This document shows, in pieces, positions 10,442 to 26,501 of a stretch of 32,262 nt of DNA. Source of the DNA: a virus (Duplodnaviria; Caudoviricetes); IMG/VR virus record IMGVR_UViG_3300043443_000090, positions 1-32,262 of that record; one strand, given 5' to 3'. Position 1 is the stretch's first letter, and the number at the start of each line of letters is the position of its first letter. A model generated the notes under the pieces. The model was not told the origin of the DNA. It worked only from the letters and a program-made list of their open reading frames with translations, and searched no databases. A program made the position numbers and the translations under genes.

Positions 10442-13400
10442 GTCTTCGACGTCGTAGCCCATGGCCTGAAGCATCTCGACCGTCTCTGGCTTGATACCCT
10501 CCGGTGCAGACTTGAGGTAGCGAGCCAGAGTCGGACGGGACATCTCGCGGGCAGAGCGGAGCGCTGACTTCTCGAACCCGCTGATCTCCAGCCCAGTCCC
10601 TTGGGCATCTGCGTTCCACTCACGAACGTATTCACGGATCCGCTTCATGCCAGCCTGATCCGAATCCAGATACGCCTTGCGGTACGCCTGTACGTAGTCG
10701 GCCTTGATCTCCTTGGCGTAGGCATCCAACTGCTTGGACAGGCGCACCACGTCGTTCTGCAACGTAGCTTCGGCAGGGTAGAACCCAAGCATCCGCGCCA
10801 TGGCGAGGCCCACCCCGGCGTCGCTCGACACCACTTGCCCGTCCTTGTTGGTGACACGCCCATCTGCAAGATACATCGAGCCGTCTGCAATCGAGCGGAA
10901 CGCAGCAACCGGAGACTTGCGCAGGATATCCACGACACTCGTGGTGTCGTCACGCAGCCCAATAACTTCTGCTGAGTACCGGGCAATGTTGCCAGCGGTA
11001 GCCGTTGCGTCGATCAATCCGCCGACCGCAGGACCAGCGAAATCCTTGAGTTCCTGTGTCGGAGACGCACCTGCCCGCAGTGCGCCAGTCAGCGGTATCA
11101 GATCGCCCATACCCAAGCGGCTGGAGACTGTCACGCCAGTGAACTGATCGAGTACGCCCTTCATGATGGCCGGCGTCATGCCCGGTGCGACACCATCGAA
11201 GAACTCCATCAACTCCTTCTCCACGCTCGCCGTGGTCAGGCCAAGCTTCTGCATGATGGTATCCAGAATATCCATCAGGTCTTCCGCGAACGGTAGACCG
11301 CGCATACCACTGGCCAGCAGGAGGAAGCCGATCATCAACGCCCTGCCCTTGAGCGGCATGTTGCGCAGCAACTGAACAGTGATGATCGAGAACTGCTTGT
11401 ACATAAAGACGTACTGCATGAGGTTACCGCGAGCCATCTCTGGGCGGTTGAACATGCCGTACTCGCCTTGCGAGTCGTTCACTGCATCGCGGGCAAACTG
11501 CGCAGCCTTGGCCGAGGCATCCGCTTCCGACATACCCATGGCCAGAGCGCGTTCCTTCTCCAGCCGGTACGCAGCCATCGCAGTGACGCGACGGTTCATC
11601 TGCTCGGTGTAGCTGAACATACCCATCCATGTCTGGATGGCAGCCTGCATCTTGTTGTTGCGTGTGCCCTGACCACGCGCACTACCGATCAGCGCGTTGA
11701 ACAACGCAGCCTGCAACACACCTTCTTCCGTGGCAGCCAAGAGGAACCTAGCTTCGTCCTCCGTCATGCCGTAGTCAGCCCACTTGCCGGACTCCACGAC
11801 CTTGCTGATGAACCCACCGTCAGACAGGTTGTAGTTCTTCAGATCAGTCGCAGCCTTCCAGATGGCGTTGCTGGCCTTGTTGACCGAGAAGCCACCGCCG
11901 AATCCCATCTTCTCGTTGTGCGTTGCGAGATAGGGAATCGAGTGCGTCATCAGCGAGGTGAAGTTCACAAGCGCCGTGGCAACCGAGCCACCGAGCTGCG
12001 CCACAACCACCCACATCTTGAACTGCGACCCGACCTCACCGGAGAGCTTGTCCTCGGTGGACTCGATGATGTTGCCGGCGTCGGTGTACCACCGCAGGAT
12101 GCTCTTTGCTTCTTCTCGGTAGTCCTCGCCACGACCCAGCGTAGGCGTCTGCTTGCCACCGACCTCGACAGTCCGGCCTTGCGCCTCGGGCTTCATGTAC
12201 TGATACATGTAAGCATACTTGGCATACTCGCGCCGGGCTTCTGCCCGCTGCTCATCCGTAGTGGCGTTATCCACCGCAGCCTTCAGTGCAGCCAGCTTAG
12301 CGGCATCACCAAGCCAGTTCTCTTGACGCAGGAAGATATCGTCCATCCTATGACGGAAGCGCTTCTTCGCTGCCACGTGGGCAGTGGACTCAAGGTACTC
12401 GGACACCGACCGGATAACGTCCTTGTCCCAACCCGGAGTACCCGAGCGGAACAGATTCTTTCGCGCACGCGCGTTGGTGTCCGTCAAGGTCTTGACAATA
12501 CGTTCACGTTCGTCAGGCTTGATGTTGATGTTCATCCGGTTCAAGGCGTAGATGAACTCGTTGAAGTTGACCGCCTCGACCAGATCAGGACTCTGGCGTA
12601 CCCGCGAGACTTCAGCCGTCAGCCGGACCTCCATCTCCTTACCTTCACCAGTACCGTCATCAACCATCAACTTCCATGTCTTCTCGCCACCGAACGTATT
12701 GTTCAGGTCGGCCTGCATCTCCAGCGCCTCACGGCGACTGTCGAACTGGTAGTACGGCAGGATGGTCTTGGCGCTTTCGTGCAGCGTGACGTACCTACCC
12801 TGCATGTCCGTAGCCGTCAGCTTGACCTGCTGGTCACCACGGCGGGTGAAGGGGACATACGCACCCATGATGGTGCGCATCGCATAGTACTCTGCGTTCT
12901 GCGCCTGCAAGTCGAACATGAACTGGTCGCGGATCGCCTTTTGCACGACGAAGGACTTCTTGTCCGTCTGCACCTTGGCGGCAAGACTTGGCAACTGCTT
13001 GCGGATATCGTCGTACTCTGAGTTCTGGAACTCAGCCAGATCCGCCAAGACCTCTGGCTTTGCGTCGGGCCGCTTGAGCCACACAGCCATGACGTCATCG
13101 TTGAACAGCGCACGACCAACGGCGATCACAAGCCGTTCCGCCTTCTCACGAGACTCCTTGCGCAGTTCCTTGGATGCGTTCTGGATCGTGCTGCCCGCGT
13201 ACATTATCTCGATGTACCGACGCGAGACGTCCTTGATCGCCTTCAGGTCCTCATCCGTGAACATATCCAAGCCGGTGCGCTTGTAGTTCAGGTCGTTGAA
13301 GATGCGGGTCGACTCGTCTTGGGCTGCCTCGAAGTTGGCCAGCATCATGTCGACGGCTGCCTCGGCAACCGTGTTGCGCTGTTCGAGGTAGATCTTCCAA

Positions 13401-16312
13401 GCCGTGCTGTTCTCGTCGACGTTATCCTGAACAAGCTGCTCGGTTACGCCACCCTTGCCGTCGTCGTAGGTAACTTTGAAGCCCTTGCGGAACTCCTCTG
13501 CAGTGACGACGCCGAACGTCTTGAGCGCATCAATAGCTTTACGGTTGAGCGTCAGCGATCCGTCCGGCGACAACTGCACGATGGACTGCTGCTTGCGGAT
13601 CACCTCGTCGGTGGCCGCTCGACTGCGAAGCAGCGCAGCATGGGACAGATACCAGCCAGCCTTGATCTTGTCTTGGTCGGTGGTGCTGAACTCGTGGGTC
13701 ACACCAGTCATGCGCTCGTACTTGGCCAGCAGCCTACGGGCAAACTGCTGTTGTTTCTCGAGCATGTTGTAGATCAGCGACAGGCCATAGCTGCGCCGGG
13801 CCTTGTTGTCCAGCGTCTGGATGGCGTTGAGCGCCCGCGACACCACACCGGGTGCATCCTGCCTACGGGCAGCGATGTTCTTCCACGCATCAGCGAAGTT
13901 GAAGACGCCACCGTTGGGACCCTGCGATATGGCTTGCGTGTAGCCCATGGACGCAAAGCTGCTCGACACCGCATCGCTGAACGTCGACGGAGTTGCCCGC
14001 TGGAACCTACCCTCGGTAGCCGCGTACCCACTGGACAGCGACGCACCGCTGAACTCGAACCCACCCTTGCCAGTGCGGACGTACTTGCGTGCCTGCCCGA
14101 CCAGATACCGGGCCATGTCGTCCTTGAACGTGAAGCCCAGCTTGTTGAGGAAGTTCTTGAGCTGCGTCCAGAACCGGTACAGCACAGAGGTTTCCATCGT
14201 GGCAGCGTTGTCTGCCAGATACTCCTCGATGGCCTCAAGCTTGGACATGTTCTCGGCGACCATCATGCCGTCGATGACAGCCTTGGCAGCCGGGTCGGTC
14301 CGGTACACTTCTTCAAGGGCGGCGTCCAGCTCACGCTTGGGCATGACGCCAGAGAACCCGAAGTGGCCGAGCACTTCGTGCGCCATCAGGAAGCGAAGCT
14401 GTTGCTCGGTGCGGATGAAGTCCGAGAACACTAGGACCGTATCACCACCAAACGCGTAGCCCATCGCGTTGGATGCGACCGCATCGAAGTCGCCCTTGTA
14501 CGCAGCCTTGGCACGGCGGTAGAGCGCGTTGTCCTTGGTGCGCATGTCAGCGACGTTGGCAAAGACATGGACCGTGGGCCGCTTGTAGAAGCGCGACATG
14601 AGCGAGGCGATGACCATGCGGATGCGACCGACCGGGACCGTATCCCCCAGCACAGTGCCATCATCACGGCGGAACGCACCGTTCTTGTCGTCGTAGGGCG
14701 AGCCACTGCGCGAGCGCTCTGCCGATACTTCTTCCTTGCGGGCTTCAGCCGCAAGTCGCCTAGCTTCTTCCAGTGCAGCCTTGACGCGATCAGCCTCGAC
14801 CATCACGTCGGTATCAGAGACCTCCTCGGTAGTAACCACAAACGTGTTGGCCGCTGACCGGCGTCCCTTCGGGTTACCGTCGGCATCGAAGTAGTCGCGC
14901 AGTGGCTGACCACGGACGAGGTAGTCCTGCATGTCCTCGGACACGCTCTCATACAAGGCACGCATCCGCTTGAACAGTGCATTGATCTTGCGCTTGTCCG
15001 TGAACAGGATCTGGTCTTCCCCCCACAATCCGTTGATGAGGTTCTGGAGCTTGAACTCCGGTGTGTTCGTAATGGTCGTCGAGGTCGGAGCCGGCTTGGA
15101 CGGAGCGTCACGGAACTCCTTGGCCGTCTCCTCTGGCAGGTTCGACAACTGGATATCGCCAGAGGCGAGCTTTGCCTTGATCACTGCCTCAGGCATGTTG
15201 GTGATCTTCAGATCCGGCTTGGCTCGGGTTATCGCGCTGAGCAAATTGTTCTTGTCTGCGTACGTAAACCACGCGTTAACCTCGCCCTTGCGCTCGCCCT
15301 TGCCGGGGGCATACTGCAAAGACTTCAGATCCTTGATCAGCGTGACGAACTCCAGCGTCGCACGTTCATGCCGGTCTTGGGTAACCTGCAGTTCCTCCAT
15401 GAACTTGAGCGCAACCTTGACCAGTCCGTTCTTCAGGTTGTTGCTGTCGGTGTTGAAGAACGCCATCTGCATGACGTCAGAGATCGCAAGGCCGAATACC
15501 TTTACGCTCTTGGCGGACTTGGCCTCGTCCATGGCTTCTTGCAGATCTTCGGCGGCGCTGTATGCCTTCTCGGAACGCGCCATGAGTACTTCGCCAAGTT
15601 CGATATTGGCCCGGCCTTCCATGAGAGCCTTGGTCCACCGCTCCTGATCTTCAGGATTGAGGTTGGCAAACGTCACGAACTTGGACGTGCCGTCATTCAT
15701 CACCGCATCCCATTCCGCGCTGGCATTGTGTGCCCTGAGGATGCGTTCGCCGAGTTCACCTGTGGCCTTGTTGCGAGCGACAGCCGCTGCCCAGCGCTCC
15801 TGAGCCTCTGTGCTGAGTGCCTCGAACGGAGCAAACTCAGGCGAGCCGTCATCCATCATGTCGGACCAGAGTTCACCAGCCGATGCACTGGCAGCTTCTT
15901 TATGCTTGGCGGTAATAGTCTTGGCCGCCATGCGGCGACCTTCGCCAGCGGCGACAGCAGCCTTCCACTCGGTCTTGAGTTCCGGGCTGAGTACGTTGTA
16001 GTTGGGGGCGTCCTCCGGGGCGAAGTTGAACCAAGCCCTACGGGCCTGATCGTCGGTTACTTCTACTGCCGCTTCCGGGGTGGCGGCTACCGCCGCCTCA
16101 CCTTTTGGGCTGGGCTTGCCCTCCAAGGCAGCCTGCACCTGCTCACGCAACTGCTTGAAAGAATCCAGCGTATCGGAGATCGCCGCGACGTAGTTGGCCT
16201 GCACGTCGTCGGTTCCGTACTCGTTGGCCAAAGCCACAAATCTTTCGGCTTCCTTGTCGGTGATCTGGGCACCTTTGAAGCAAGCACGGAATCGCAAGTT
16301 AACGGTAGCCAT
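10436..16312 (-). CDS. Giant polyvalent internal virion/ejection protein (1958 aa) with metallopeptidase-like and PLxRFG-like regions
   Basis: AAGGGG RBS then ATG 16312. LMAHEVLGHFG...EEYLA is a zincin-like motif (~14363-14380). YVPFTRRG resembles the PLxRFG signature (~12840-12860). Largely helical; last gene of the virion operon. Confidence 0.75.
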   Translation of the reverse strand: MATVNLRFRACFKGAQITDKEAERFVALANEYGTDDVQANYVAAISDTLDSFKQLREQVQAALEGKPSPKGEAAVAATPEAAVEVTDDQARRAWFNFAPEDAPNYNVLSPELKTEWKAAVAAGEGRRMAAKTITAKHKEAASASAGELWSDMMDDGSPEFAPFEALSTEAQERWAAAVARNKATGELGERILRAHNASAEWDAVMNDGTSKFVTFANLNPEDQERWTKALMEGRANIELGEVLMARSEKAYSAAEDLQEAMDEAKSAKSVKVFGLAISDVMQMAFFNTDSNNLKNGLVKVALKFMEELQVTQDRHERATLEFVTLIKDLKSLQYAPGKGERKGEVNAWFTYADKNNLLSAITRAKPDLKITNMPEAVIKAKLASGDIQLSNLPEETAKEFRDAPSKPAPTSTTITNTPEFKLQNLINGLWGEDQILFTDKRKINALFKRMRALYESVSEDMQDYLVRGQPLRDYFDADGNPKGRRSAANTFVVTTEEVSDTDVMVEADRVKAALEEARRLAAEARKEEVSAERSRSGSPYDDKNGAFRRDDGTVLGDTVPVGRIRMVIASLMSRFYKRPTVHVFANVADMRTKDNALYRRAKAAYKGDFDAVASNAMGYAFGGDTVLVFSDFIRTEQQLRFLMAHEVLGHFGFSGVMPKRELDAALEEVYRTDPAAKAVIDGMMVAENMSKLEAIEEYLADNAATMETSVLYRFWTQLKNFLNKLGFTFKDDMARYLVGQARKYVRTGKGGFEFSGASLSSGYAATEGRFQRATPSTFSDAVSSSFASMGYTQAISQGPNGGVFNFADAWKNIAARRQDAPGVVSRALNAIQTLDNKARRSYGLSLIYNMLEKQQQFARRLLAKYERMTGVTHEFSTTDQDKIKAGWYLSHAALLRSRAATDEVIRKQQSIVQLSPDGSLTLNRKAIDALKTFGVVTAEEFRKGFKVTYDDGKGGVTEQLVQDNVDENSTAWKIYLEQRNTVAEAAVDMMLANFEAAQDESTRIFNDLNYKRTGLDMFTDEDLKAIKDVSRRYIEIMYAGSTIQNASKELRKESREKAERLVIAVGRALFNDDVMAVWLKRPDAKPEVLADLAEFQNSEYDDIRKQLPSLAAKVQTDKKSFVVQKAIRDQFMFDLQAQNAEYYAMRTIMGAYVPFTRRGDQQVKLTATDMQGRYVTLHESAKTILPYYQFDSRREALEMQADLNNTFGGEKTWKLMVDDGTGEGKEMEVRLTAEVSRVRQSPDLVEAVNFNEFIYALNRMNINIKPDERERIVKTLTDTNARARKNLFRSGTPGWDKDVIRSVSEYLESTAHVAAKKRFRHRMDDIFLRQENWLGDAAKLAALKAAVDNATTDEQRAEARREYAKYAYMYQYMKPEAQGRTVEVGGKQTPTLGRGEDYREEAKSILRWYTDAGNIIESTEDKLSGEVGSQFKMWVVVAQLGGSVATALVNFTSLMTHSIPYLATHNEKMGFGGGFSVNKASNAIWKAATDLKNYNLSDGGFISKVVESGKWADYGMTEDEARFLLAATEEGVLQAALFNALIGSARGQGTRNNKMQAAIQTWMGMFSYTEQMNRRVTAMAAYRLEKERALAMGMSEADASAKAAQFARDAVNDSQGEYGMFNRPEMARGNLMQYVFMYKQFSIITVQLLRNMPLKGRALMIGFLLLASGMRGLPFAEDLMDILDTIMQKLGLTTASVEKELMEFFDGVAPGMTPAIMKGVLDQFTGVTVSSRLGMGDLIPLTGALRAGASPTQELKDFAGPAVGGLIDATATAGNIARYSAEVIGLRDDTTSVVDILRKSPVAAFRSIADGSMYLADGRVTNKDGQVVSSDAGVGLAMARMLGFYPAEATLQNDVVRLSKQLDAYAKEIKADYVQAYRKAYLDSDQAGMKRIREYVREWNADAQGTGLEISGFEKSALRSAREMSRPTLARYLKSAPEGIKPETVEMLQAMGYDVEDL

Positions 16313-18212
16313 CAAAGAACCCCTTGGTGGTCAAGGCCACCAGAAGATCAGTAACCAGTTCATCTTCCTGCTGCAACTGTACCAGAGTGGGAAGATCTTT
16401 TTCAGGGCGGTAAGGCTCGAACTTGACACCGTGTCGGCGGGGTCGGCGGGCCGATACCACAGGAGCTGCGACCACGATCGCATCGGCGGCAAACGCAATG
16501 CCATCCAACGTGAACGCCATGGTCCCGGTGATTGCACCGGGCGAGGAAACTGTAGCGCTGGCGTTGACTGCGATCGTGTCGAGGGTCGCAGCAAGTGTAG
16601 CCGGGTGTCCCAGCGTAGCCGAGGAGGCTACCGTTACCCCGTCGAGGGTCGCAGCAAGTGTAGCCGGGTGTCCCAGCGTAGCCGAGGAGGCTACGGTAAT
16701 CCCATCCAACGTAACCGCCATCGTGGCGGTAAGACTTCCCCCGATGCTGGCGCTGGCAGCAAAGGTGATGCCGTCAAGGGTTACGGCAAGTGTGGCTGGA
16801 TGCCCCAGCGTTGCCGAGGAGGCGACGGCGACATCGTCAAGGGTGAACGCCATCGTGGCGGTCTTGCCCCCAGCGGTGACCGTTCCAGAGGCCGCGACCG
16901 TTACCGAGTCCAGCGTAAACGCAACGGTTGCTTCAAGCCTGTTCGCGGTATCGAATACAACGGGGTCAAATACCGCAATGTCAAATACCGGCAGCGTTAT
17001 CGAAGGCGCGATCGGGTTTACGGTTACGGTGGCTGCATTGGAGTAGACCGCGCCAGAGCCGGCATCGGTGACCAATACGAGGTACTGCCAACCGCTATCG
17101 GCAGTTGTCAGTGTGCCAGTCGTGTAGCTGCTAGAAGTGGCCCCAGAAAGAGTCGAGAACCCGCTTCCTGGGGTTTGCTGTCTGTACCACTGGTACGCAA
17201 GAGGTGCGCTTGTAGTGACGGCAGTAACGCTGAACGTCGCAGTGCTGCCGGTAGATATCGACTGATTCGCGGGCTGAACAGTGATCCCAGGCGACGGGAC
17301 AGTCAGCAGCGCTGAGCTAGACGTCGTCGTACCAACGCTGTTGGTTACCTGTACGCGGTACAGGTTGCCATTTTCAGTGAAGGTTACGGACGTTCTGTTG
17401 TATGTGCTGTTGGTGTAGGTGCCCGGCGCTTTGTCCCATGTCGAGCCACTGTTTACCGACTCCTCCCACTGGTACGTCATCGCACCAATGTTTGAGGTCG
17501 CCGAAACAGTAAACGTCGCCGTGGTGCCGTATGGCGCAACTACGTCGACAGGCTGCGCATCAATAACCGGAGCAGTGGCGATCTTGTATGTCGCCAGAGC
17601 AAGACGACTATTGATCGAATTGGTCGCCGTCCAAAGAGCGTTGGCAAGGGTAATGCTGGATACGGTTTGGTACGCCGCAGCCGACCAATAGTAGGTATTG
17701 GCGATGTCGTCAAACGACGTCGTATACCCAGAAGGGAACGTAGTAGTGCCGGGATCCGAGCTAAAGATGACCGTTGCGTAAACAAGCTCGTCAGCTTGAG
17801 TAGTAAAATCCGTGGCGTTGACGGAGCATAGCGTAGTTCCGGTAGGGGCAGCATTCCCGGTCGTATCAAGCGGCGTAGTGGCAAACCCTGACCACTCGTC
17901 AATTGACAGCGAGATTGAGAACGTATCTGCAGCAGGCAGATTGACGGTAACAGCCGTCTGACCGGAATTTACTACCCGAGCCCGGAATATATAGACAGCG
18001 CGGAACGTGTCCGTTTCGCGGGAGGAGTCTTTGGTGGCAGTGGTTCCGGCAATCGTGACCGACGAGATCAGGTTGTTAGCCTGCATCGCAATCGAGACGA
18101 TTACATCATTGCCTACCGTGAACGCAGAGGCGGCGTTGAATGTGATCGAGGATACGGGTGTACTTTGGTTTGCGCCAAGTAGCCCGGATCCTTGAACCAG
18201 TGTGGCTGCCAT
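16299..18212 (-). CDS. Ig-domain and beta-repeat fibre/decoration protein (637 aa)
   Basis: Ser/Thr-rich N-terminal domain; two Ig-like domains (PVIDAQP...TATFTVSA...TYQW...YRVQVTN and ITVQP...TATFSVTA...YQWY...YLVLVTD); FDIAVFDPVVFD motif; seven ~21-24-aa TLD repeats; C-terminal RRPRR...EDELVTDLLVAL. Confidence 0.75.
   Translation of the reverse strand: MAATLVQGSGLLGANQSTPVSSITFNAASAFTVGNDVIVSIAMQANNLISSVTIAGTTATKDSSRETDTFRAVYIFRARVVNSGQTAVTVNLPAADTFSISLSIDEWSGFATTPLDTTGNAAPTGTTLCSVNATDFTTQADELVYATVIFSSDPGTTTFPSGYTTSFDDIANTYYWSAAAYQTVSSITLANALWTATNSINSRLALATYKIATAPVIDAQPVDVVAPYGTTATFTVSATSNIGAMTYQWEESVNSGSTWDKAPGTYTNSTYNRTSVTFTENGNLYRVQVTNSVGTTTSSSALLTVPSPGITVQPANQSISTGSTATFSVTAVTTSAPLAYQWYRQQTPGSGFSTLSGATSSSYTTGTLTTADSGWQYLVLVTDAGSGAVYSNAATVTVNPIAPSITLPVFDIAVFDPVVFDTANRLEATVAFTLDSVTVAASGTVTAGGKTATMAFTLDDVAVASSATLGHPATLAVTLDGITFAASASIGGSLTATMAVTLDGITVASSATLGHPATLAATLDGVTVASSATLGHPATLAATLDTIAVNASATVSSPGAITGTMAFTLDGIAFAADAIVVAAPVVSARRPRRHGVKFEPYRPEKDLPTLVQLQQEDELVTDLLVALTTKGFFDGYR
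16578..16694. repeat. Tandem direct repeat, 63-bp period, 54 bp identical
   Basis: gtcgagggtcgcagcaagtgtagccgggtgtcccagcgtagccgaggaggctac at 16578-16631 and 16641-16694. Degenerate copies extend over ~16470-16935. Confidence 0.9.
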
Positions 18213-18223
18213 CTAGGGCACCT

Positions 18224-18568
18224 TTACGCGCGGATTTCGGCAGCGCGCCCCGGCGCGATCAATCCTTCTAGCTCAAAGTACGCCAGCGCGTCGATGACTT
18301 CCTGATTGTCGAGATCAATTTCTTCTGCAGCGTTAAAATCATTGCGCATGACAATAACGTTCACATCAGTAGACGTGTCGATACCAGTGCGCTCAGAGAA
18401 AGTGAACCGAATACGGAACTGATACTTGGTGATGATCCGCGGGGTCGGCAGCGGATCAAGATAGTTTGGATCAGCAGTGACCGCTTCAATTGTCCAGCCG
18501 CTGGGGACGGGGTCGTTGACCGGCAGCAACTGATAGTTGCCGTTGCCGTCAGAGAGTACGTTCCACAT
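18224..18568 (-). CDS. Putative fibre assembly chaperone (114 aa)
   Basis: ITKYQFRIRFT..ER..I...IDLD...GLI..GRAAEI resembles small proteins found next to phage fibre genes. Directly follows the fibre-like gene. Confidence 0.55.
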   Translation of the reverse strand: MWNVLSDGNGNYQLLPVNDPVPSGWTIEAVTADPNYLDPLPTPRIITKYQFRIRFTFSERTGIDTSTDVNVIVMRNDFNAAEEIDLDNQEVIDALAYFELEGLIAPGRAAEIRA

Positions 18569-18570
18569 GG

Positions 18571-19563
18571 TTAGATGTCCGTCTCAAGATAGAACTTGTT
18601 GAGGGCCAGAATCTTCGCCGTCGTGCCAGTGGTCGACCTGATATGAAACTTTGCCGCCAGAGCGCCAGTCGGCTGCGTGGCAGTGACGACTACGTTGTTG
18701 ACGTAGACAGTGCCTGTGATGGCATCCTTCAGCAGGTAAGTGACGCTGGTGCCACTGGGCGGCATGAATGCGGTGAAGTCCAGAATCTGCCCGGCTGTCG
18801 GTGTGACACCAGTCGCCGTCTTGGTTGTCGTGGTGCCGTTGCGGGTCATGATCTGCCAAGTAGTGTCGGCAGTGTCTTTGCCAATGCCGCAGAGACTGCC
18901 CGTCCACGTTGACGGATCCGTCGTCTGTGCAGCCACTGCCGATGTCAGACCCAAGAACATCTGTATTGATGACAGGTAGGTATCGACCGCGAACCGCATG
19001 TACATGAAGAACCCGGTTTCCGGCAAGGAAGCCACAGAGTTCGCGGTTGCGATTGTTGCGTTACCGAGCCCAGAAAAAATGGACGACGACGATGTTGCGT
19101 TGGTTCCAGTAGACAGGAGCGTTCGCCGCATCCTCGTGTATGCAGACGTGGTCGTGATCGCTGGGTTAGTTATACCAAGGGTTGCTGTTGCGGTGCCGCC
19201 GTTTAGGCTTACCCATGACGTACCAACATTTCCGACCACTAGAGAAGTCGTGTTCATCACGGTTGCCGTGACGCTATTGACTTGCTGGCCGCCACCGGGC
19301 GTGTACATGGTGATGGTGTTGCCGAAGAACGCCGGCTGGATGCCGACGTCGACGCCCGTAGGCCCAATCATGTTCAGCATGCGTCGACCAGCGCGACTCT
19401 TTGAGTACAAGCGCAAGTCAGCCGCAGGCGCTGCGGGATCAGTGGCCTGAACAGGAAAGTCCAGATACTGATCCAACGTGTGATCGTCATTCCACCGCGT
19501 TACGGATACTTGTTTCGTGGGGTCATTAGACCCCGTTGCTGTATATCCGTGCTTGATCGGCAT
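18571..19563 (-). CDS. Putative fibre/receptor-binding protein (330 aa)
   Basis: N-terminal IKH...D...V...WN..H motif; LRLYSKSRAGRRML...GP.G.D...QP; Thr-rich beta-sandwich-like C-terminus ending YLETDI. Confidence 0.6.
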   Translation of the reverse strand: MPIKHGYTATGSNDPTKQVSVTRWNDDHTLDQYLDFPVQATDPAAPAADLRLYSKSRAGRRMLNMIGPTGVDVGIQPAFFGNTITMYTPGGGQQVNSVTATVMNTTSLVVGNVGTSWVSLNGGTATATLGITNPAITTTSAYTRMRRTLLSTGTNATSSSSIFSGLGNATIATANSVASLPETGFFMYMRFAVDTYLSSIQMFLGLTSAVAAQTTDPSTWTGSLCGIGKDTADTTWQIMTRNGTTTTKTATGVTPTAGQILDFTAFMPPSGTSVTYLLKDAITGTVYVNNVVVTATQPTGALAAKFHIRSTTGTTAKILALNKFYLETDI

Positions 19564-19940
19564 TACGCATTACCTTCGGTAATCGTCGCCGACGTGATCG
19601 TGACCGTGTCGCTGATGGCGATCGTGGTGTTGGTGATGTTGATGTTGCTGCCAGACGTACCGACAGTCAGACCTTCCATCACCAGCGTGGAACCGTCGGA
19701 CTTGTAGATCCGGGCGATTGCCGCCGTACCCGCTGCGCTGGCTGTGCCTGCCGAGATGGCGTTGAGGGTAAGCACACCGCTCGATGCCGCAGCAGCGAAA
19801 GCCGAGGCATTGCAAATGCACTCAACCAACTGCGAAGCATAAGCTGCCGTGTAAATACGCAGCTTGGCACTGGTGCCAGCGAACGTCGTGATCTGGTCGG
19901 CGCGGTTGTTGCGCAGCGTTACGTTGAGTGCGATAGCCAT
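19563..19940 (-). CDS. Small beta-rich virion structural protein (125 aa)
   Basis: LRN..AD.I......KLRIY...F..A.SG.L......A...GTA..ARI...G.VGTSG....I....V.ITS.TITEGNA pattern, typical of small phage fibre or decoration subunits. Confidence 0.65.
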   Translation of the reverse strand: MAIALNVTLRNNRADQITTFAGTSAKLRIYTAAYASQLVECICNASAFAAAASSGVLTLNAISAGTASAAGTAAIARIYKSDGSTLVMEGLTVGTSGSNINITNTTIAISDTVTITSATITEGNA

Positions 19941-19942
19941 TA

Positions 19943-20299
19943 TTAAGCCTCAGAAGTTGCGTTGATGCGCTTGATTGTACCGTTGGGATTGCGCTCGAAC
20001 TCAAACGTCCACTTGGTAGGCGCTTGGGTTTTGGCCGGTGCAGCAACGGTTACCTGCGGTGTCGGCATGGTCGGAAGCTTGACTTCAACCGGACGATTGA
20101 TTGCAGCAAGTATCTGCTGCATAAGCTCGGGGGTCAACTCCTGCCGAGGGGCAGGAGCAGGCATGGGGGCAGGCTCGGGTTCAGGCTTGCTGCCCCGCAT
20201 CAGACGCTTGCCTTGGATACCAGCCGTGTTGAACTTGCGGCCGTCCGTGTACGCCACGGTAGACCCAGTCTCCAGAGCCAGCTCATCAAGATCGTACAT
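19943..20299 (-). CDS. Hypothetical protein (118 aa), Pro-rich linker, C-terminal WTFEFERNPNGTIKRI hairpin
   Basis: GGAG RBS. Tightly coupled to flanking genes (2-nt gaps). Confidence 0.7.
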   Translation of the reverse strand: MYDLDELALETGSTVAYTDGRKFNTAGIQGKRLMRGSKPEPEPAPMPAPAPRQELTPELMQQILAAINRPVEVKLPTMPTPQVTVAAPAKTQAPTKWTFEFERNPNGTIKRINATSEA

Positions 20300-20301
20300 G
20301 C

Positions 20302-23085
20302 TCAGGCTCCCTTGACGCAGTTCAACAGTTGCTCGAAGCGCTTGATCTTATCCTCGATTGTAGCAAGGAACTTCTTGCCATCAGGGTTTTCGAGGGTACT
20401 GCCGTCAGCAAGCGTGATGCTGATTGGTACAGGCGCTACTTCATCCGGAACAGCCCCGGCTTGTCCTTCTTCCTTGGGGACGGCCTTGCCTTTTCGGGTA
20501 AGCGTTTTCCGGGTGGGTACTTTTGCTCCCACTCCTGCGCCAGTTTCGGCAGGTTCGCGTGGAGGTACCGACGCTGCTTCTCGCTTTTGAACGGCATCTG
20601 CCTGCTCCTGTTCCGCCTTCGCCTTGGCAGCCAAGGCTTCGGCTGCCTGCTTCTCGGCTTCCTTGCGCGCCTGCTCAGCTTCCTTGAGCGCGACCTCAGC
20701 TTCCTTGCGAGCCTTGTCGGCTTCCTCAGCTTCCTTGCGGGCCTTCTTGAGCAGCTTGTCCGCGTTCTTGCGGGTCTGCGCAGCCGTGGCAGGCGGTGCC
20801 TGCTGACCTCCCGTCTCAGCAACTGGGGTGACAGGACCACGGCGCAAGGCCGCACCCTTGAGCGCAGCAACCGAAGGCTCACCAGCCTGCGTGAACATCG
20901 GCAACTGACCAGCCTGCTGGAACTCACCGGGCGTAGGCCGCTTGAGGGCTTGAGCCTTGGCGGTAACAGGCGGCTCCATGCCACGGCGCAGGCGCTCTGA
21001 TCCTGACGGACGAGGCAGCCCACGCGGACCGAACAGCGGTAACTGCTGCGGCACCTGCTCGGTAGGAACCTGCTGACGGACTTGCCTTACACCACGGCGC
21101 AGACTCTCGCCTGCCAGTTGCTGGTCACGTTGTACCAGAGCGCGTTCGTAGTCGGCATCAAGCTGGGCCTGCCGCTGTTGCATGGCAGCATCGAACTCTG
21201 CCTGACGCTGCGGAGAAAGCTGCGCTCGCTGGACCTGCTGCCCGAACTCTGTCGAGGGGGTAACGACCGGTGCTTCAGGGGCAGGCGGCGCAAACTGGAA
21301 CGGCATCTGCCCGGGCGGAACTTCCGGTGGGAGCTGCGGCAAGCCAGTGGTCGCATACTGCTCGGGCTGCATCCGCTGCGCAGTCTCGGCCTGCGACATG
21401 GGGAACAACGGAAGTACGCCCTGCTGTCCGGGCTGCAACTGGGCAGCCCCCGGTTGATCGAACGGAAGACCCAACTGCTCTGGCGCAGGACCAAACTCAG
21501 GTGCAACGGCTGGCGCAACACCGGGCATCGGTCCGGGCAACTGCGCTCCGAACAACTCACCCTGTGCTCCAGTGAACGCAGGCGCTGGCGGGCGAGGCGG
21601 GCGACGAGTTCTCTCCCGTGTTGGGAGAACTTGTTCTGCGGTAAGCGGCTCCGAGGAAGCAGCAGGGTTGAGCAGGTTGGCAGGCTTGTTACCGGAGAGA
21701 TTGGCGACAGCACCGATGGGGCCACCGACACCAAAGCCAGCGGCGAACGAGTTGACCAGTCGGTTGATACCTTCCGCCGAGTTCCAGTCAACGTCCTCAT
21801 TGGCAGCGAGGAGCAGCCCCTCCTGCGCAGCTTCTGTACCGCCCTCGAGCGCACCGCCCTTGAACAATCCAGCGCCCGCACGCTTGGCACCTTCGGTCAG
21901 CTTTCCACGGATACCGGGGACTTGCAGCAGCGGAGCTTTGGCTGCACCGATATTCCCGAATACCTTACCGGCCAACAGGAACTCGGGCAGCGTCTCAAAC
22001 GCAGCGTACGGAATGCCGAGCATCGCAGCGGTGGCGCGGTCAGGATCACCCGACTCAACGGTCTCGCCGTAGATATCCGCCACACCGGTAGCGTAGTTCT
22101 GCAAGCCAGTGGCGATACCAGCGCCACCGATACGAGCCTGCTGTGCCCCAAGCTTCAGAGCATCGCCAGCGCCTGCGTAGGCAGCAAACTGGTCAGCATT
22201 CATCAGCCCCTGAGGACTGGCGTACAGTCGACCCTGTTTGATCTGGGCAGCGGCGGTAGTACCGGCCATCTCATGCAGCAGCTTGGTCTCTGCGGCGTCG
22301 AGGACTTCACCCTTCTGGTACTTCTTGGCAGCGGCAAGCACAGCCTGCTTGACCGACTGACGACCCGCGAGGGCGGCCAGAGCGCCACCAGCGGCGGAGA
22401 ACGGGTTCGGGCCACCACCAGCGGCAGCACCAGCGCCAGCGCCAAGGGCGGCAGTTACCACCGACTCGACGATGTTGGGGCCTTGCTGCGCAAGGTTGGC
22501 TACGAACCAGTCGAGGACGCCACGGTTGGGCTGGCCGATGTCGGTCGCCATCCGCTCGTACGGGGAGGTCTTGCGAAGATCCTCCATCTGCTGGGCGACA
22601 ATGCCGCCACCCATTTCCTCGGCACCAGCGAACTGCAGCCCACGACCAGCCAGAAGCTGGGTCATGTCAACGCCACGTCCGAAGTTCTTGGACGCAAGCC
22701 GGCCAAGGCTGGGGTTGCGGATGGCCTGCAAGTACTGCCCGTACGCCTGCGCGTCGAGCGGGACCCAGTCACCCTGCGGCAAGCCGGTGCCCGGAGCGTC
22801 CAACAGCGGCTCGACCTCAAGCGCACGCTGCGCGTCATCGGCAGAGAACGTCTGACCTTGTACGTACAACTCGTTGCGCGAGGGGCTGAACGCGATCGAC
22901 GCCGGCATGACCGGCTTGGGGAACGAGAAGTCAGACGCCCCCGCCAGCCTCTCACCCATGGTAGCCATGTCGGTCAGCGACGACTCAAGCCCCTGCAAAC
23001 CAGCCGGCCGGTACGAGGCGTAGGGATTGGGGTCCTCGCCTGCAGTTATCCCCGGTCGCATTACACCAAACGGATCAATGGCCAT
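20302..23085 (-). CDS. Large internal virion/ejection protein (927 aa)
   Basis: Gly/Ala-rich hydrophobic segments with G..EGGTEAAQE, a Pro/Gln-rich disordered region, an EAE/K coiled-coil repeat, and C-terminal ...LLNCVKGA. Follows the lytic transglycosylase gene. Confidence 0.7.
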   Translation of the reverse strand: MAIDPFGVMRPGITAGEDPNPYASYRPAGLQGLESSLTDMATMGERLAGASDFSFPKPVMPASIAFSPSRNELYVQGQTFSADDAQRALEVEPLLDAPGTGLPQGDWVPLDAQAYGQYLQAIRNPSLGRLASKNFGRGVDMTQLLAGRGLQFAGAEEMGGGIVAQQMEDLRKTSPYERMATDIGQPNRGVLDWFVANLAQQGPNIVESVVTAALGAGAGAAAGGGPNPFSAAGGALAALAGRQSVKQAVLAAAKKYQKGEVLDAAETKLLHEMAGTTAAAQIKQGRLYASPQGLMNADQFAAYAGAGDALKLGAQQARIGGAGIATGLQNYATGVADIYGETVESGDPDRATAAMLGIPYAAFETLPEFLLAGKVFGNIGAAKAPLLQVPGIRGKLTEGAKRAGAGLFKGGALEGGTEAAQEGLLLAANEDVDWNSAEGINRLVNSFAAGFGVGGPIGAVANLSGNKPANLLNPAASSEPLTAEQVLPTRERTRRPPRPPAPAFTGAQGELFGAQLPGPMPGVAPAVAPEFGPAPEQLGLPFDQPGAAQLQPGQQGVLPLFPMSQAETAQRMQPEQYATTGLPQLPPEVPPGQMPFQFAPPAPEAPVVTPSTEFGQQVQRAQLSPQRQAEFDAAMQQRQAQLDADYERALVQRDQQLAGESLRRGVRQVRQQVPTEQVPQQLPLFGPRGLPRPSGSERLRRGMEPPVTAKAQALKRPTPGEFQQAGQLPMFTQAGEPSVAALKGAALRRGPVTPVAETGGQQAPPATAAQTRKNADKLLKKARKEAEEADKARKEAEVALKEAEQARKEAEKQAAEALAAKAKAEQEQADAVQKREAASVPPREPAETGAGVGAKVPTRKTLTRKGKAVPKEEGQAGAVPDEVAPVPISITLADGSTLENPDGKKFLATIEDKIKRFEQLLNCVKGA
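20436..20597 (-). CDS. Overprinted small basic protein (53 aa) nested out of frame in the 927-aa gene
   Basis: AGGAG (20609-20605), 7-nt spacer, ATG 20597. Reads MPFKSEKQRRYLHANLPKLAQEWEQKYPPGKRLPEKARPSPRKKDKPGLFRMK*. Confidence 0.65.
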   Translation of the reverse strand: MPFKSEKQRRYLHANLPKLAQEWEQKYPPGKRLPEKARPSPRKKDKPGLFRMK

Positions 23086-23088
23086 GTA

Positions 23089-24873
23089 TTACCCCATCGG
23101 TGCGTAGCTGGGCAGACCCGCAATCGGGCGGGCGGCATTCGATTGTACCTCAATACCGTCGATGGTGATCGTCTGACCTTGCGGGGTAAAGTAGAACGGC
23201 GACTGTCCGGGCGGGCGGATGAGGACCATGCCTTCGGAGCCGACGGGTTTGATCTCCCAGCCGGCGTTTGCCTTGACGTACTCCAGTGCCTGAGCAAGAT
23301 TGCCCTTGGTGCGCTCGACGGCAATGTCCTTGATCATCTCGCCATACAACTTCGACTGGTCTTCCTGCTGCTTCAGTCTCGACTCGAACTGCTTGGCGTT
23401 GAACTCGGCGGTCGCTGCAGACTGCTGCTGGCGGAACGCACTATCGAACGCCGCACGCGATCGGGAGGAAAGCTCTGTTGCGGAAATGCCACGGTCGGTA
23501 AGCTGCCCATTGACCAACACGTTGTACGTACCGTCCGAGCGCGGCTGGATGTTGATCGGCTGCCCGTAGTACATGGACCACACGGCGGCAAGCCGGCGCG
23601 GATCGTTGGACATCGCCAGTTCCTGCAGACCCTGCATACCCTGCAAGTGGGTCATGCCAGCATCCAACTCGAGGATCTTGGCCCGGACTTCCATGAACTG
23701 CTGGCCCATCCCGGAGCGCTGGTACATACCGGCCAGACGCGCAAGTTCCTCACGGACCTGACCCATCCGCTGGAACTCCATCGGGATCGACTGTTCCTCG
23801 CCGACGTACGCCTGCACCGGAGCGCCTGCGGCTTGGGCGGGAGCGCCTGCAGCCTGAGCGACCTGCACCCCCGGCTGGGCTCCCATCTTGGACAACACCT
23901 TGGGGATGTAGTCCCGCGTTTCCGCAGGGAGACGGTTGGGGTCAGCGCCTGCGGCGATCCATTCTTCTGCGTTGGCCGGACCCCAGTTGTAGGCAGCCAG
24001 TGCATGCTCGACATTGCCACCAAACTTGTTGAGCATTGCGGCAAGATAGTCACGGCCAACCCGGCGCTTTTCCTCAGGACTGTCGTCCTGCGCGGGAGTT
24101 ACACCGAAACCCGGATCACGTAGCGTACCAGCCATGGTCTGCATCGAGCCAGATGCGCCAGACTTGGGGTTCACCGCATACATGTTGCCGCCGCTCTCAA
24201 CCATCTCAACGGCGTTTGCAAGCGACCCAAACTGCGGAGCCTGCGGAGTCTGCGGGAGATTAAGGGCAGCCTCTGGCGACACCGCCGCCTCTGGCAAGTT
24301 AAGCGCACCAGCCACGGACTCAGGCGATACACCTGCTGGACGCCTAGCCAGACGACGCCCCGAAGGAGCAGCCCGACCACTAGCTGCGGTTTCTTGGATG
24401 TACTTGCGCAACTCGGCTTCGACTTGTGCGTCTGTTACCGTAGGTTTACCACTAGGGACACGGGCACCCGGTCTTACCATCGAGTAGGGCGACATCGCCG
24501 CCAACCCGGTTGTAGGCACCATATTCGGACCTTGAGCGGACTCTAGCCGGGTACGAATGCTCGCTCGCAGCTTCTGCATTTCAGCAGGAGAAAGATCCCA
24601 TGTACGCTCCGGCGTAGTGGGCTTTGCAACTTCTTCCTGTTGCTGCGGCTCCGGAGGAGCTACCTGCTCGACGCCAAGCTTCGGGGCTGCCATACGCTGG
24701 TACTCAGGCGCAGCCGGCAAGGGCTGGGAAGCAGCTTCCCTGCGGAACTGGTCGAGGCGGTTCTGCTCCTCGATCTGGAGTTGGCGCTCACGCGACTTAC
24801 GAGCCTGTTCCTCGCCAGTACGAAAGCCAGTGGAGGCGGCACCAGCACGACCAAGGATCAACCCAAGTGCCAT
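23089..24873 (-). CDS. Internal virion protein with soluble lytic transglycosylase (SLT) domain
   Basis: VESGG (catalytic Glu), GASGSMQTM, G.DYL..ML..F.G....ALAAYNWG, ETRDYI.KV. Confidence 0.88.
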   Translation of the reverse strand: MALGLILGRAGAASTGFRTGEEQARKSRERQLQIEEQNRLDQFRREAASQPLPAAPEYQRMAAPKLGVEQVAPPEPQQQEEVAKPTTPERTWDLSPAEMQKLRASIRTRLESAQGPNMVPTTGLAAMSPYSMVRPGARVPSGKPTVTDAQVEAELRKYIQETAASGRAAPSGRRLARRPAGVSPESVAGALNLPEAAVSPEAALNLPQTPQAPQFGSLANAVEMVESGGNMYAVNPKSGASGSMQTMAGTLRDPGFGVTPAQDDSPEEKRRVGRDYLAAMLNKFGGNVEHALAAYNWGPANAEEWIAAGADPNRLPAETRDYIPKVLSKMGAQPGVQVAQAAGAPAQAAGAPVQAYVGEEQSIPMEFQRMGQVREELARLAGMYQRSGMGQQFMEVRAKILELDAGMTHLQGMQGLQELAMSNDPRRLAAVWSMYYGQPINIQPRSDGTYNVLVNGQLTDRGISATELSSRSRAAFDSAFRQQQSAATAEFNAKQFESRLKQQEDQSKLYGEMIKDIAVERTKGNLAQALEYVKANAGWEIKPVGSEGMVLIRPPGQSPFYFTPQGQTITIDGIEVQSNAARPIAGLPSYAPMG

Positions 24874-24876
24874 AGA

Positions 24877-26052
24877 TTACCCCTTCTTCTGGCTGGTGTA
24901 CGCACCGTAGAGATCGCCCGCAAACTTGCCGATGTTCTCAGCCTGTCCCGCAGCCCGATCCTCTGCAGTACCGTAGGCCGACATCAAGCTGGTGTACCCA
25001 CTGCCAGAGTCAGGATACGCCCCCGGGAACATCGCAAGACCAGCTTTACGCGTATCAAGTCGGTTACCGATCCCGGCACCATAACCCACATCGTAAGCCG
25101 TACCGGTGGTGCGGGCGGTATCCAGATCGTAACGACGGGCCTCGGCCTGACGCTCGCCACCAGTCATACCACGCAGACCTTCACGCTTGGCGCGGCTGCC
25201 GGCAATCTGGGCACGCCTTGCGGACTGCAGCCCTGCGTACTCAGGATCGAAGTAGGCCGACTCACCGATCAGCTTGCGGGCCTCGTTCAGCCGCTCACGG
25301 TACGCAGCCTCGTTGGCAGAGGTAGACGCACGCAAAGCTTCAGCCTGCTGCTCCATCATCCGCCGCTCCGCAGCACTGGGACCAGACAGAGCACCAGCGG
25401 CCAGAGTCGTGGCACCCTGCACAAGAGCCGGGGTCAGCTTGCTAGCCGTACCAGCAGCCGCAGTGCCGGGAGCCGCGCCGATACCGGTCATCGTCCGGAA
25501 GTTCTGCGCCGTACCGCTGGCGATATTGCCAAGGACACCCGAAGCATTTGCTGCTGACGGAGTTACCGCGCTAGCCATACCCGCAGCCCCCGGGACATTC
25601 GCCAAGAAGCCCGGAGTCGCAGTTGCTGTGGTCGGAGCAGCCAGCACACCGCCACCTGCCGGAAGCTTAAGCCCCGCAGCCATGTCAGCAATACTTGTGG
25701 GTGCAGCACCCGGAGCGCTAGCCAGCACACCAGACCCCGGAGTCGCTTGCGTAGCCCCTGCAGCAAGATTGGACGTAGGTGCACCAGTGGGTGTAGTCAT
25801 GTACCCGCCAATGCCACCTCCCAAGCCACCCATTAGTGCGCCTGAGCCGAACTTGCCACCTTGCAGTTTCGAGGCTGCGCCGCCCAGTACTGCACCAGTC
25901 AAGGCACCACCGAAGGTGGACCCAAGGGTAGCGCTACCCAGCGCAGTACCGATGGCACCGGATAGACCAATCGCACTTGCGATCGCAGGAGCAGCAAAAG
26001 GCACTGCAATGGCAGCGACCACACCGATAACTTTCCGAACGGACTTGCTCAT
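24877..26052 (-). CDS. Gly/Ala-rich pilot/DNA ejection protein (391 aa)
   Basis: N-terminal hydrophobic VAAIAVPFAAPAIA and GxxxG-rich helices, low-complexity middle, helical C-terminus. Position before the SLT ejection protein. Confidence 0.6.
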   Translation of the reverse strand: MSKSVRKVIGVVAAIAVPFAAPAIASAIGLSGAIGTALGSATLGSTFGGALTGAVLGGAASKLQGGKFGSGALMGGLGGGIGGYMTTPTGAPTSNLAAGATQATPGSGVLASAPGAAPTSIADMAAGLKLPAGGGVLAAPTTATATPGFLANVPGAAGMASAVTPSAANASGVLGNIASGTAQNFRTMTGIGAAPGTAAAGTASKLTPALVQGATTLAAGALSGPSAAERRMMEQQAEALRASTSANEAAYRERLNEARKLIGESAYFDPEYAGLQSARRAQIAGSRAKREGLRGMTGGERQAEARRYDLDTARTTGTAYDVGYGAGIGNRLDTRKAGLAMFPGAYPDSGSGYTSLMSAYGTAEDRAAGQAENIGKFAGDLYGAYTSQKKG

Positions 26053-26501
26053 GCCGACTCCTGAAGATTCATCCGTACGTAGGAACAGGATTTGTTGAAG
26101 CCAAACTTCTTGCGGTACAGGTTGGCCATGCGCTCGTTGGCGTACGCGTCAAGGAACACAATGTCATTGGCCTTGAGCCACTGGAGAATGATCTTCCAGT
26201 ACGCAGCCTTGAACAGCAGCAGGTGCTGCCCACCCAATCCGATGATGTCCGCGCACTTCATGTTGTTCGTGACGTTGAACTGGATGGCCAGCACAAGGCT
26301 GGGTACATCGTCCATCGAGAATACAAACACAGCGCACAGACCGTCGATCGCCAACTGCTTGATGGATTCAGGAGTGAGTTCGTCCTTGGCAATGTCGTTG
26401 CTCTCGCACGACTGCCTGAACAGCGGCTCCAAGACAGGCCACAACTCATCTACGCGGGCCTGCCCTTCGAGCATTTCTACAGAAAGGTTACGACTTTCCA
26501 C
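26049..26501 (-). CDS. Putative GNAT-fold virion-associated protein (150 aa)
   Basis: IIGLGG...W.KAN....LDA......LYRKKFGF. Size and position match the acetyltransferase-like gene that precedes ejection genes in many podoviruses. Confidence 0.55.
   Translation of the reverse strand: MESRNLSVEMLEGQARVDELWPVLEPLFRQSCESNDIAKDELTPESIKQLAIDGLCAVFVFSMDDVPSLVLAIQFNVTNNMKCADIIGLGGQHLLLFKAAYWKIILQWLKANDIVFLDAYANERMANLYRKKFGFNKSCSYVRMNLQESA

Follow-up and report, generated by a model that had tools for sequence, protein, structure and literature searches.

A giant gene of the ejection type in an uncultured podophage is cut in two by a five-gene cassette, and each of the two new ends carries a short, predicted helical module with the only cysteine of its half. 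The gene lies in a 32,262-nucleotide (nt) stretch of DNA (the whole of which is termed the window here; IMG/VR record IMGVR_UViG_3300043443_000090, Caudoviricetes), a genome fragment from a virus record that is 59% complete, with replication genes on the plus strand and a virion operon on the minus strand. By analogy with a solved phage structure, the two modules probably dock, a Cys923-Cys11 disulfide forms between them, and the cassette-split halves are packaged and ejected as one chain.

The N-terminal half (half A; 927 amino acids [aa], positions 20302 to 23085, minus strand) has a conserved N-domain at about aa 16 to 480, matches the N-terminal part of fused relatives of 2.2 to 3.3 thousand aa, and ends in LLNCVKGA followed directly by the stop codon, with Cys923 as its only Cys. 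The C-terminal half (half B; 1958 aa, positions 10436 to 16312, minus strand) starts with MATVNLRFRACFKGA, has Cys11 as its only Cys, and from about aa 85 onward resembles the C-terminal part of the fused relatives at ~50% identity. A first-pass annotation of this DNA had described the facing ends as CVKGA and CFKGA, alike at 12 of 15 nt and holding the sole Cys of each protein, and that description was confirmed on the sequence.

Most relatives of this protein are encoded by a single gene. Among 79 related viral loci fetched with an alignment of the N-domain, some of whose contigs are duplicates, 63 have one open reading frame (ORF) matching both halves, 3 are split, and 13 end too early, while of 21 proteins retrieved by searching with the beginning of half B, 19 match both halves. 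The single-ORF homologs that the first-pass annotation had proposed to look for therefore exist, supporting a single gene split by a cassette. The nearest proteins (P0058 to P0062) are fused, with ~56% identity to half A and ~50% to half B, the latter only from B residue 85, and the closest fused relatives of the window halves lack both Cys modules. At the fused locus L058, only ~30 low-complexity residues separate the match to window A residues 832 to 875 from a repeat matching B from ~88, so the cassette, including both Cys-bearing ends, takes the place of a short linker. The split is real: a single giant gene has been divided by a cassette. The same linker looks like a general insertion hotspot, since unrelated additional segments lie in it or close to it in two fused relatives (P0059, aa 850 to 960; P0067, aa ~770 to 860).

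The split form has two terminal modules. The half A module (~aa 880 to 927, positions 20302 to 20448, minus strand) is predicted to form a beta-hairpin (888 to 900) and a long helix (903 to 926), with the Cys923 codon at 20319 to 20317, and the half B module (aa 1 to 63, positions 16124 to 16312, minus strand) is predicted to form helices at 3 to 11, 19 to 29, and 37 to 63, with the Cys11 codon at 16282 to 16280. Fold models of the A module showed a hairpin and a long helix with the Cys at its end (predicted local distance difference test [pLDDT] score of 83), and those of the B module showed three helices (pLDDT 80). Both modules are absent from the fused relatives: module profiles had no match in 82 fused sequences, with best scores of 5.7 bits or less, and neither the modules nor the first cassette gene (118 aa), the 3' border stub, or the interior genes had a significant match in 77 fused locus records with flanks of up to 10 kb.

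Half A homologs of near-full length numbered 57, the window included, and 39 of them end in a helix with a Cys 2 to 6 residues from the stop; tails of the main type can be aligned over their final ~45 aa, in which D, I, L, and C residues are invariant. Thirteen of the other 18 end in sequence that aligns inside fused proteins. Every B half (6 of 6, one partial) has a single Cys, at residue 4 to 11. Because the fused relatives hold 5 Cys in 211,848 aa (82 sequences, duplicates and partials included), the lone terminal cysteines are far beyond chance. Since choosing A halves by their Cys is circular, Cys-blind searches were also run, and both Cys were present in all 3 split loci from the N-domain search, in all 4 loci from the search with the 118-aa gene, and in the 4 real matches, all already known, of the 11 in a scan for the border DNA. 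Whether split versions keep their terminal Cys motifs and the cassette had been raised in the first-pass annotation; what is kept is the lone terminal Cys and not the CxKGA wording itself. A degenerate DNA scan for the C-terminal module returned mostly chance matches (2 of 4 viral and 3 of 27 metagenome matches were real), a profile search for B halves with the N-terminal module found only the 2 already known, and module and protein searches of PDB (sequence and fold), BFVD, and ESM Atlas gave nothing significant.

A comparable pair of ends has been solved in cyanopodophage A4 (Anabaena phage A-4L), where, according to the accessible text, the C-terminal helix of gp27 inserts into gp26 and a Cys1715-Cys5 disulfide is seen by cryo-electron microscopy (cryo-EM) (PMC12002296; PDB 9K2V/9K3A). 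These two residues are the only Cys in both A4 proteins. Rejoining of the halves through their terminal Cys, one of three options in the first-pass annotation, thus has a solved precedent by analogy. The cassette sits in the short low-complexity linker and gives half A its stop and half B its start. In the mechanism we propose, the C-terminal helix of half A would pack on the three-helix N-terminal module of half B during assembly, Cys923 and Cys11 would oxidize in the particle as in A4 gp27-gp26, and the halves would be ejected as one thread.

Phage assembly takes place in a reducing cytoplasm, where disulfides form poorly. This point, together with the presence of one Cys per end, always at facing termini, would favor modules that join the halves through other Cys chemistry, such as a shared metal site or thioester/peptide ligation to one polypeptide. 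Such chemistry is unlikely, since the module alignments hold no conserved His or second Cys, neither half matches an intein family, and the 2 to 5 variable aa after the A-half Cys and the 3 to 10 aa before the B-half Cys are unlike intein junctions. In addition, the accessible part of the A4 report describes a disulfide by cryo-EM for the same layout (PMC12002296).

The similarity of the two window ends had led to two further options in the first-pass annotation, a cassette that duplicated its target on insertion and a cassette that can be excised or switched. Both would make the cassette a site-specific element at a CxKGA target it duplicated, whose excision would restore a 2870-aa ORF. The argument for such an element is the match itself: the 15-mers at the two Cys codons, which lie 4037 nt apart, are identical at 12 of 15 nt, with a chance of ~4.5e-4 between random 15-mers both starting TGY (the motif length having been chosen post hoc). 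However, the similarity ends with the 15-mers (14/35 and 23/75 once flanks are included), and the same comparison gave 5 to 7 of 15 in five other complete split loci and 3 to 10 of 15 in cross pairs between loci; tails elsewhere have CLMGK, CLTRK, or CLKAA, and heads have CFVNT or CLINS. We read the CxKGA match, which is unique to the window lineage, as a lineage-specific coincidence. The in-register join of 2870 aa holds as arithmetic and carries no evidential weight, because any in-register Cys-to-Cys join stays in frame, and the similar helix noted at both ends is real in the window (6 of 15 residues identical) but not kept in homologs. Fused relatives have neither Cys nor CxKGA at the site, and because both Cys modules are absent from them, a join at CxKGA would fail to restore the fused state. 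Pfam and PHROG family searches found no recombinase gene in the cassette, and none of the largest repeats listed at five loci was a prominent border repeat, so the cassette lacks the pairing of a recombinase with conserved direct repeats at its two borders that defines an att-flanked element. No 16282/20320 joint was present in the contigs of 4 runs, contigs being a form of data that drops rare forms. Taken together, an excisable or target-duplicating element is very improbable.

The cassette itself consists of five genes of 118, 125, 330, 114, and 637 aa, all on the minus strand and as tightly packed between the halves as first described (gaps of 2, 2, −1, 2, 11, and −14 nt). The first and constant gene encodes the 118-aa protein (19943 to 20299), which has no family match and had no match in GTDB genome contigs or GenBank phages. 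The variable interior follows, with a 125-aa virion structural protein (phrog_3758; 19563 to 19940), a 330-aa Thr/Gly-rich protein (phrog_13925, a PHROG of unknown function; 18571 to 19563), a 114-aa protein (phrog_25252, also a PHROG of unknown function; 18224 to 18568), and a 637-aa fiber- or decoration-like protein (16299 to 18212) with immunoglobulin (Ig) domains (Pfam Ig_3, E = 4.5e-11), tail/Hoc-like PHROG matches, and 21-aa repeats. Calling all five genes fiber-type, as was done at first, is therefore only partly supported, the 637-aa and 125-aa proteins being the two with a structural label. The repeats of the 637-aa gene are 63 nt long at the DNA level (16576 to 16862), and similarly spaced repeats are found in the last interior gene of locus L129.

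The last ~50 aa of the 637-aa protein form the 3' border stub (..DLLVALTTKGFFDG..; 16299 to 16448, minus strand), which is conserved, is a separate small gene in other loci, and overlaps the start of half B. Its last codons contain a Shine-Dalgarno-like AAGGGG (16325 to 16320) and the ATG (16312) of half B (together 16310 to 16325, minus strand), and a Shine-Dalgarno-like AGGGG plus the half B ATG occupy the same place in 5 of 5 cassette loci. The block thus supplies both the stop of half A and the restart of half B. The scan for promoters and terminators found no excess over shuffled sequence.

Five loci (the window, L028, L097, L129, and L130) share the order of A-module, 118-aa homolog, differing interior, stub, and N-module, with interiors of 3.1 to 4.4 kb from stop to start, and three partial contigs (L105, L122, and L123) have the same 5' border. 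The block, from C-module through 118-aa gene, variable genes, and stub to N-module, is present or absent as a unit. In a near-identical strain from another study (run X3), with closely similar flanks, both borders with the 118-aa gene and stub were kept while the interior had diverged (16379 to 19950, with the same length over 18621 to 19950). L129 and L130 come from distant phages, with tail genes 25 to 37% identical and no detectable N-domain similarity in the A half of L129. In each of them, a divergent giant gene shows the same borders of the cassette together with the two Cys modules (L129:5908-15750 and L130:6986-18135); the A half of L129 matches phrog_11358, and the B half of L130 matches DarB-like and PLxRFG-type PHROGs. 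A second type of split was found at L089:2683-11847 and L091:8770-17934, comprising a 689-aa A half whose last residues are LHNCLSKKG, a single gene of 148 aa, and a 2210-aa B half that begins with MASCSIK. The tail of this type does not match the window-type module profile, and the nine such short A halves form one clade.

With interior genes varying between loci, the suggestion that cassette products dock at the seam between the halves found no evidence. The 118-aa protein is likely an adaptor for the structural genes, and it is more likely that this protein and the stub anchor variable fibers.

Split and fused alleles are interleaved on the trees of both halves. In the N-domain tree of 112 sequences (73 fused and 39 split, with 12 duplicates and contig-end loci dropped), the split/fused label changes 16 times, and 12 of these changes are required by branches supported at 95 or more. 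In the B-core tree, the fused genes closest to a cassette locus differ from one such locus to the next, and a tree constrained to group three cassette loci was rejected (difference in log likelihood, 554; p-AU, 2e-11). Pairwise comparisons show recombination footprints: split P0014 and fused L021 are 86 to 100% identical over the first 450 aa, and P0025 and P0007 have N-domains only 56% identical, with their last 150 aa 88 to 100% identical and a 40-aa module identical. At L028:9968-21395, the A half is nearest to fused L031 and the B half to L083/P0074, a placement by sequence that suggests reassortment of the halves across the cassette.

These patterns may reflect a mobile gene-splitting module without a mobility enzyme, which enters the linkers of essential giant ejection genes in distantly related podophages and brings its own stop, start, disulfide clasp, and exchangeable fiber genes, the clasp letting the cut protein still pass through the tail as a single chain. 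We advance this view tentatively, at somewhat short of even confidence. Within the main reading, that of halves probably rejoined by a disulfide, the block would move or be lost via homologous recombination between conserved flanks and not by site-specific excision, its value would be a late-operon slot for exchangeable fiber or decoration genes, and it would have arisen by one-step capture of an ejection gene end, fiber genes, and the next ejection gene start from a phage whose pair was already Cys linked, an origin that is plausible.

The direction of change could also be the reverse, with the split clasped state old and fused genes arising repeatedly by in-frame loss of the cassette instead of being invaded by it. 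Split A halves are spread over the entire tree, deep branches included, module similarity tracks N-domain similarity (rho 0.70), and the same borders are found in the distant phages L129 and L130, all as expected of an old split state. Against this, fused genes keep no module remnants (5.7 bits or less in the 82 sequences), fused loci outnumber split ones 63 to 3, and identical modules sit on divergent N-domains, leaving an old split state somewhat less likely than not.

The operon in which the gene lies is of the ejection type. Upstream of half A are genes for a 150-aa GNAT-like protein, a 391-aa Gly/Ala-rich protein, and a 594-aa SLT transglycosylase (23089 to 26501, minus strand), in the order of epsilon15 gp13-gp14-gp15; the GNAT label of the 150-aa gene is given by synteny and position, without a family match. 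The longer order (807-aa tail/nozzle-type gene, two small genes, 150-aa, 391-aa, and 594-aa SLT genes, then the giant) parallels epsilon15 gp12-gp17, so the giant gene occupies the position in a podophage ejection operon that follows the nozzle, GNAT, small internal, and SLT genes. Half B contains a PLxRFG (tail-700, NF032893) domain at aa 1435 to 1919 (10556 to 12010, minus strand) that scores 196 bits against the curated cut-off of 100 bits, placing it in the PLxRFG family, and is ~28% identical to F116-like giants. As for large polyvalent proteins (Iyer 2017), the late-gene context and an HEVLGH zincin-type motif are there (half B aa 645 to 650, positions 14363 to 14380, minus strand; present in 73 of 73 full-length fused relatives), and no Pfam MPTase or LPD match was found. 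One polyvalent protein of 2811 aa, phi24B gp47, is found in virions and is a proposed ejection protein according to the accessible text (bioRxiv 10.64898/2026.04.10.717836). By analogy with epsilon15 synteny, the PLxRFG family, and phi24B gp47, the giant protein of the window is likely injected capsid cargo. Half A and the 118-aa gene have no match among GenBank phages, so a cultured relative is lacking. At its 3' end, half B overlaps a convergent primase-type gene (7598 to 10441, plus strand) by 6 nt at their stops (10436 to 10441).

The two halves could also be independent cargo, with the modules serving as separate packaging or ordering signals (e.g., for binding to the portal or a scaffold) and not binding each other. 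The accessible text of PMC5512222 proposes that polyvalent proteins are cleaved into units by an MPTase of their own, and with a zincin motif in half B, continuity may be dispensable. Yet fused relatives are packaged without either module, the two modules always occur together and only at facing ends, and independent cargo would leave the lone Cys on each module unexplained. We consider independent cargo quite improbable, and the disulfide-joined chain remains the preferred reading.

Several observations weigh against the reading of a cassette-split, disulfide-joined chain. The sequences counted as split were picked by their terminal Cys, most A-half proteins come without genomic context, and complete split junctions number 6. 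For 5 of the 18 A-half matches without the motif, an origin as a piece of a fused protein could not be assigned. P0068, a 1705-aa protein with no Cys, has its start within half B on a contig of 58 kb, and P0050, likewise on a long contig, ends near the cut site without a module. Each may be a fragment or a true exception, which makes Cys-less splits possible. The trees are quick ones with a simple model and long-branch warnings, and they are unrooted, so gain and loss cannot be told apart from them. Tail identity correlates with N-domain identity (rho 0.70), so much of the module history is vertical, and vertical descent and recombination both act. The modules have no fold match in PDB or BFVD. 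Neither hidden Markov model (HMM) nor blastp comparison found similarity between the window modules and the A4 or epsilon15 termini, and no fold match was found, so the link to A4 is one of analogy, in the sense that it works alike.

The fused and split alleles bear on how megadalton cargo is ordered and drawn through the narrow tail of a podophage. Phages that are nearly identical carry this protein in one piece or in two, and a lone Cys is always gained at each new end of the two-piece form; with such sister alleles, the proposition that the cargo must be one covalent thread becomes directly testable. If the mobile-module reading is true, the cassette acts in effect as a redox "split intein," with the implication that ejected cargo has to form a single covalent thread. 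It would be a third way for broken phage genes to survive, beside split inteins and noncovalent tails. The family also suggests that the single disulfide of A4 is a general design, and the 50- to 60-aa modules could serve as a redox-switchable protein clasp.

A4 is among the closest known systems. As in the window, consecutive giant ejection proteins lie downstream of a transglycosylase-bearing ejection protein; the first bears its sole Cys at the end of its C-terminal helix, and the next has a sole Cys near its N terminus. Unlike in the window, the gp27 and gp26 genes are adjacent (5-nt gap), with no cassette between them. The accessible text of the A4 report treats the bond as a structural detail and does not mention fused relatives or mobility (PMC12002296). 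Salmonella phage epsilon15, a cultured phage, has gp16 and gp17 (L132:14669-19329) in the same place after the GNAT, small internal protein, and SLT genes, with a sole Cys629 of 634 in gp16 and a sole Cys5 in gp17. These genes, too, differ from the window in being adjacent and without a cassette or sequence similarity, and no report of a bond between their products was found. Sequence comparison did not show BPP-1 Bbp10 to be a fused epsilon15 gp16 plus gp17. In the crAss001 structure paper, disulfides occur only in tail and portal-vertex proteins, as far as its accessible text goes (PMC10172136).

Other phage genes are broken and restored by different means. In phage Aeh1, an essential gene (nrdA-a/nrdA-b) is likewise broken by an insertion (mobE) and new terminal tails restore function without splicing, as described in the accessible text of PMC3045599, whereas the insert there is a homing endonuclease and the target an enzyme; the window has no nuclease gene, swappable structural genes, and lone-Cys tails. 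The "fractured genes" of PMC2677866 follow the order of host-N, joining module, inserted genes, joining module, and host-C, mainly in phages, and in the accessible text are made up of split inteins and a free-standing endonuclease; in the window, the join is a predicted disulfide, the modules are retained, and there is no splicing. Both mechanisms were considered as explanations and rejected: neither half matches a Pfam family, the modules are short and helical, and no nuclease family was found among the five window genes or the scanned interiors of other loci.

The PLxRFG/polyvalent giants (F116/H66/LKA5, phi24B gp47), unlike the window protein, are single ORFs by annotation. In the accessible text of the polyvalent-protein paper (PMC5512222), the words "cysteine," "split," and "disulfide" occur 0 times, and that of an ejection-protein review (PMC8954989) mentions no cysteine, split, or disulfide. 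The literature searched, which left most subscription literature outside, gave no account of Cys-module cassettes or of a fused/split rule, only the A4 bond. To these systems the window family adds a clasp-bearing cassette whose borders are defined and whose interior can be swapped, along with fused sister alleles that are nearly identical.

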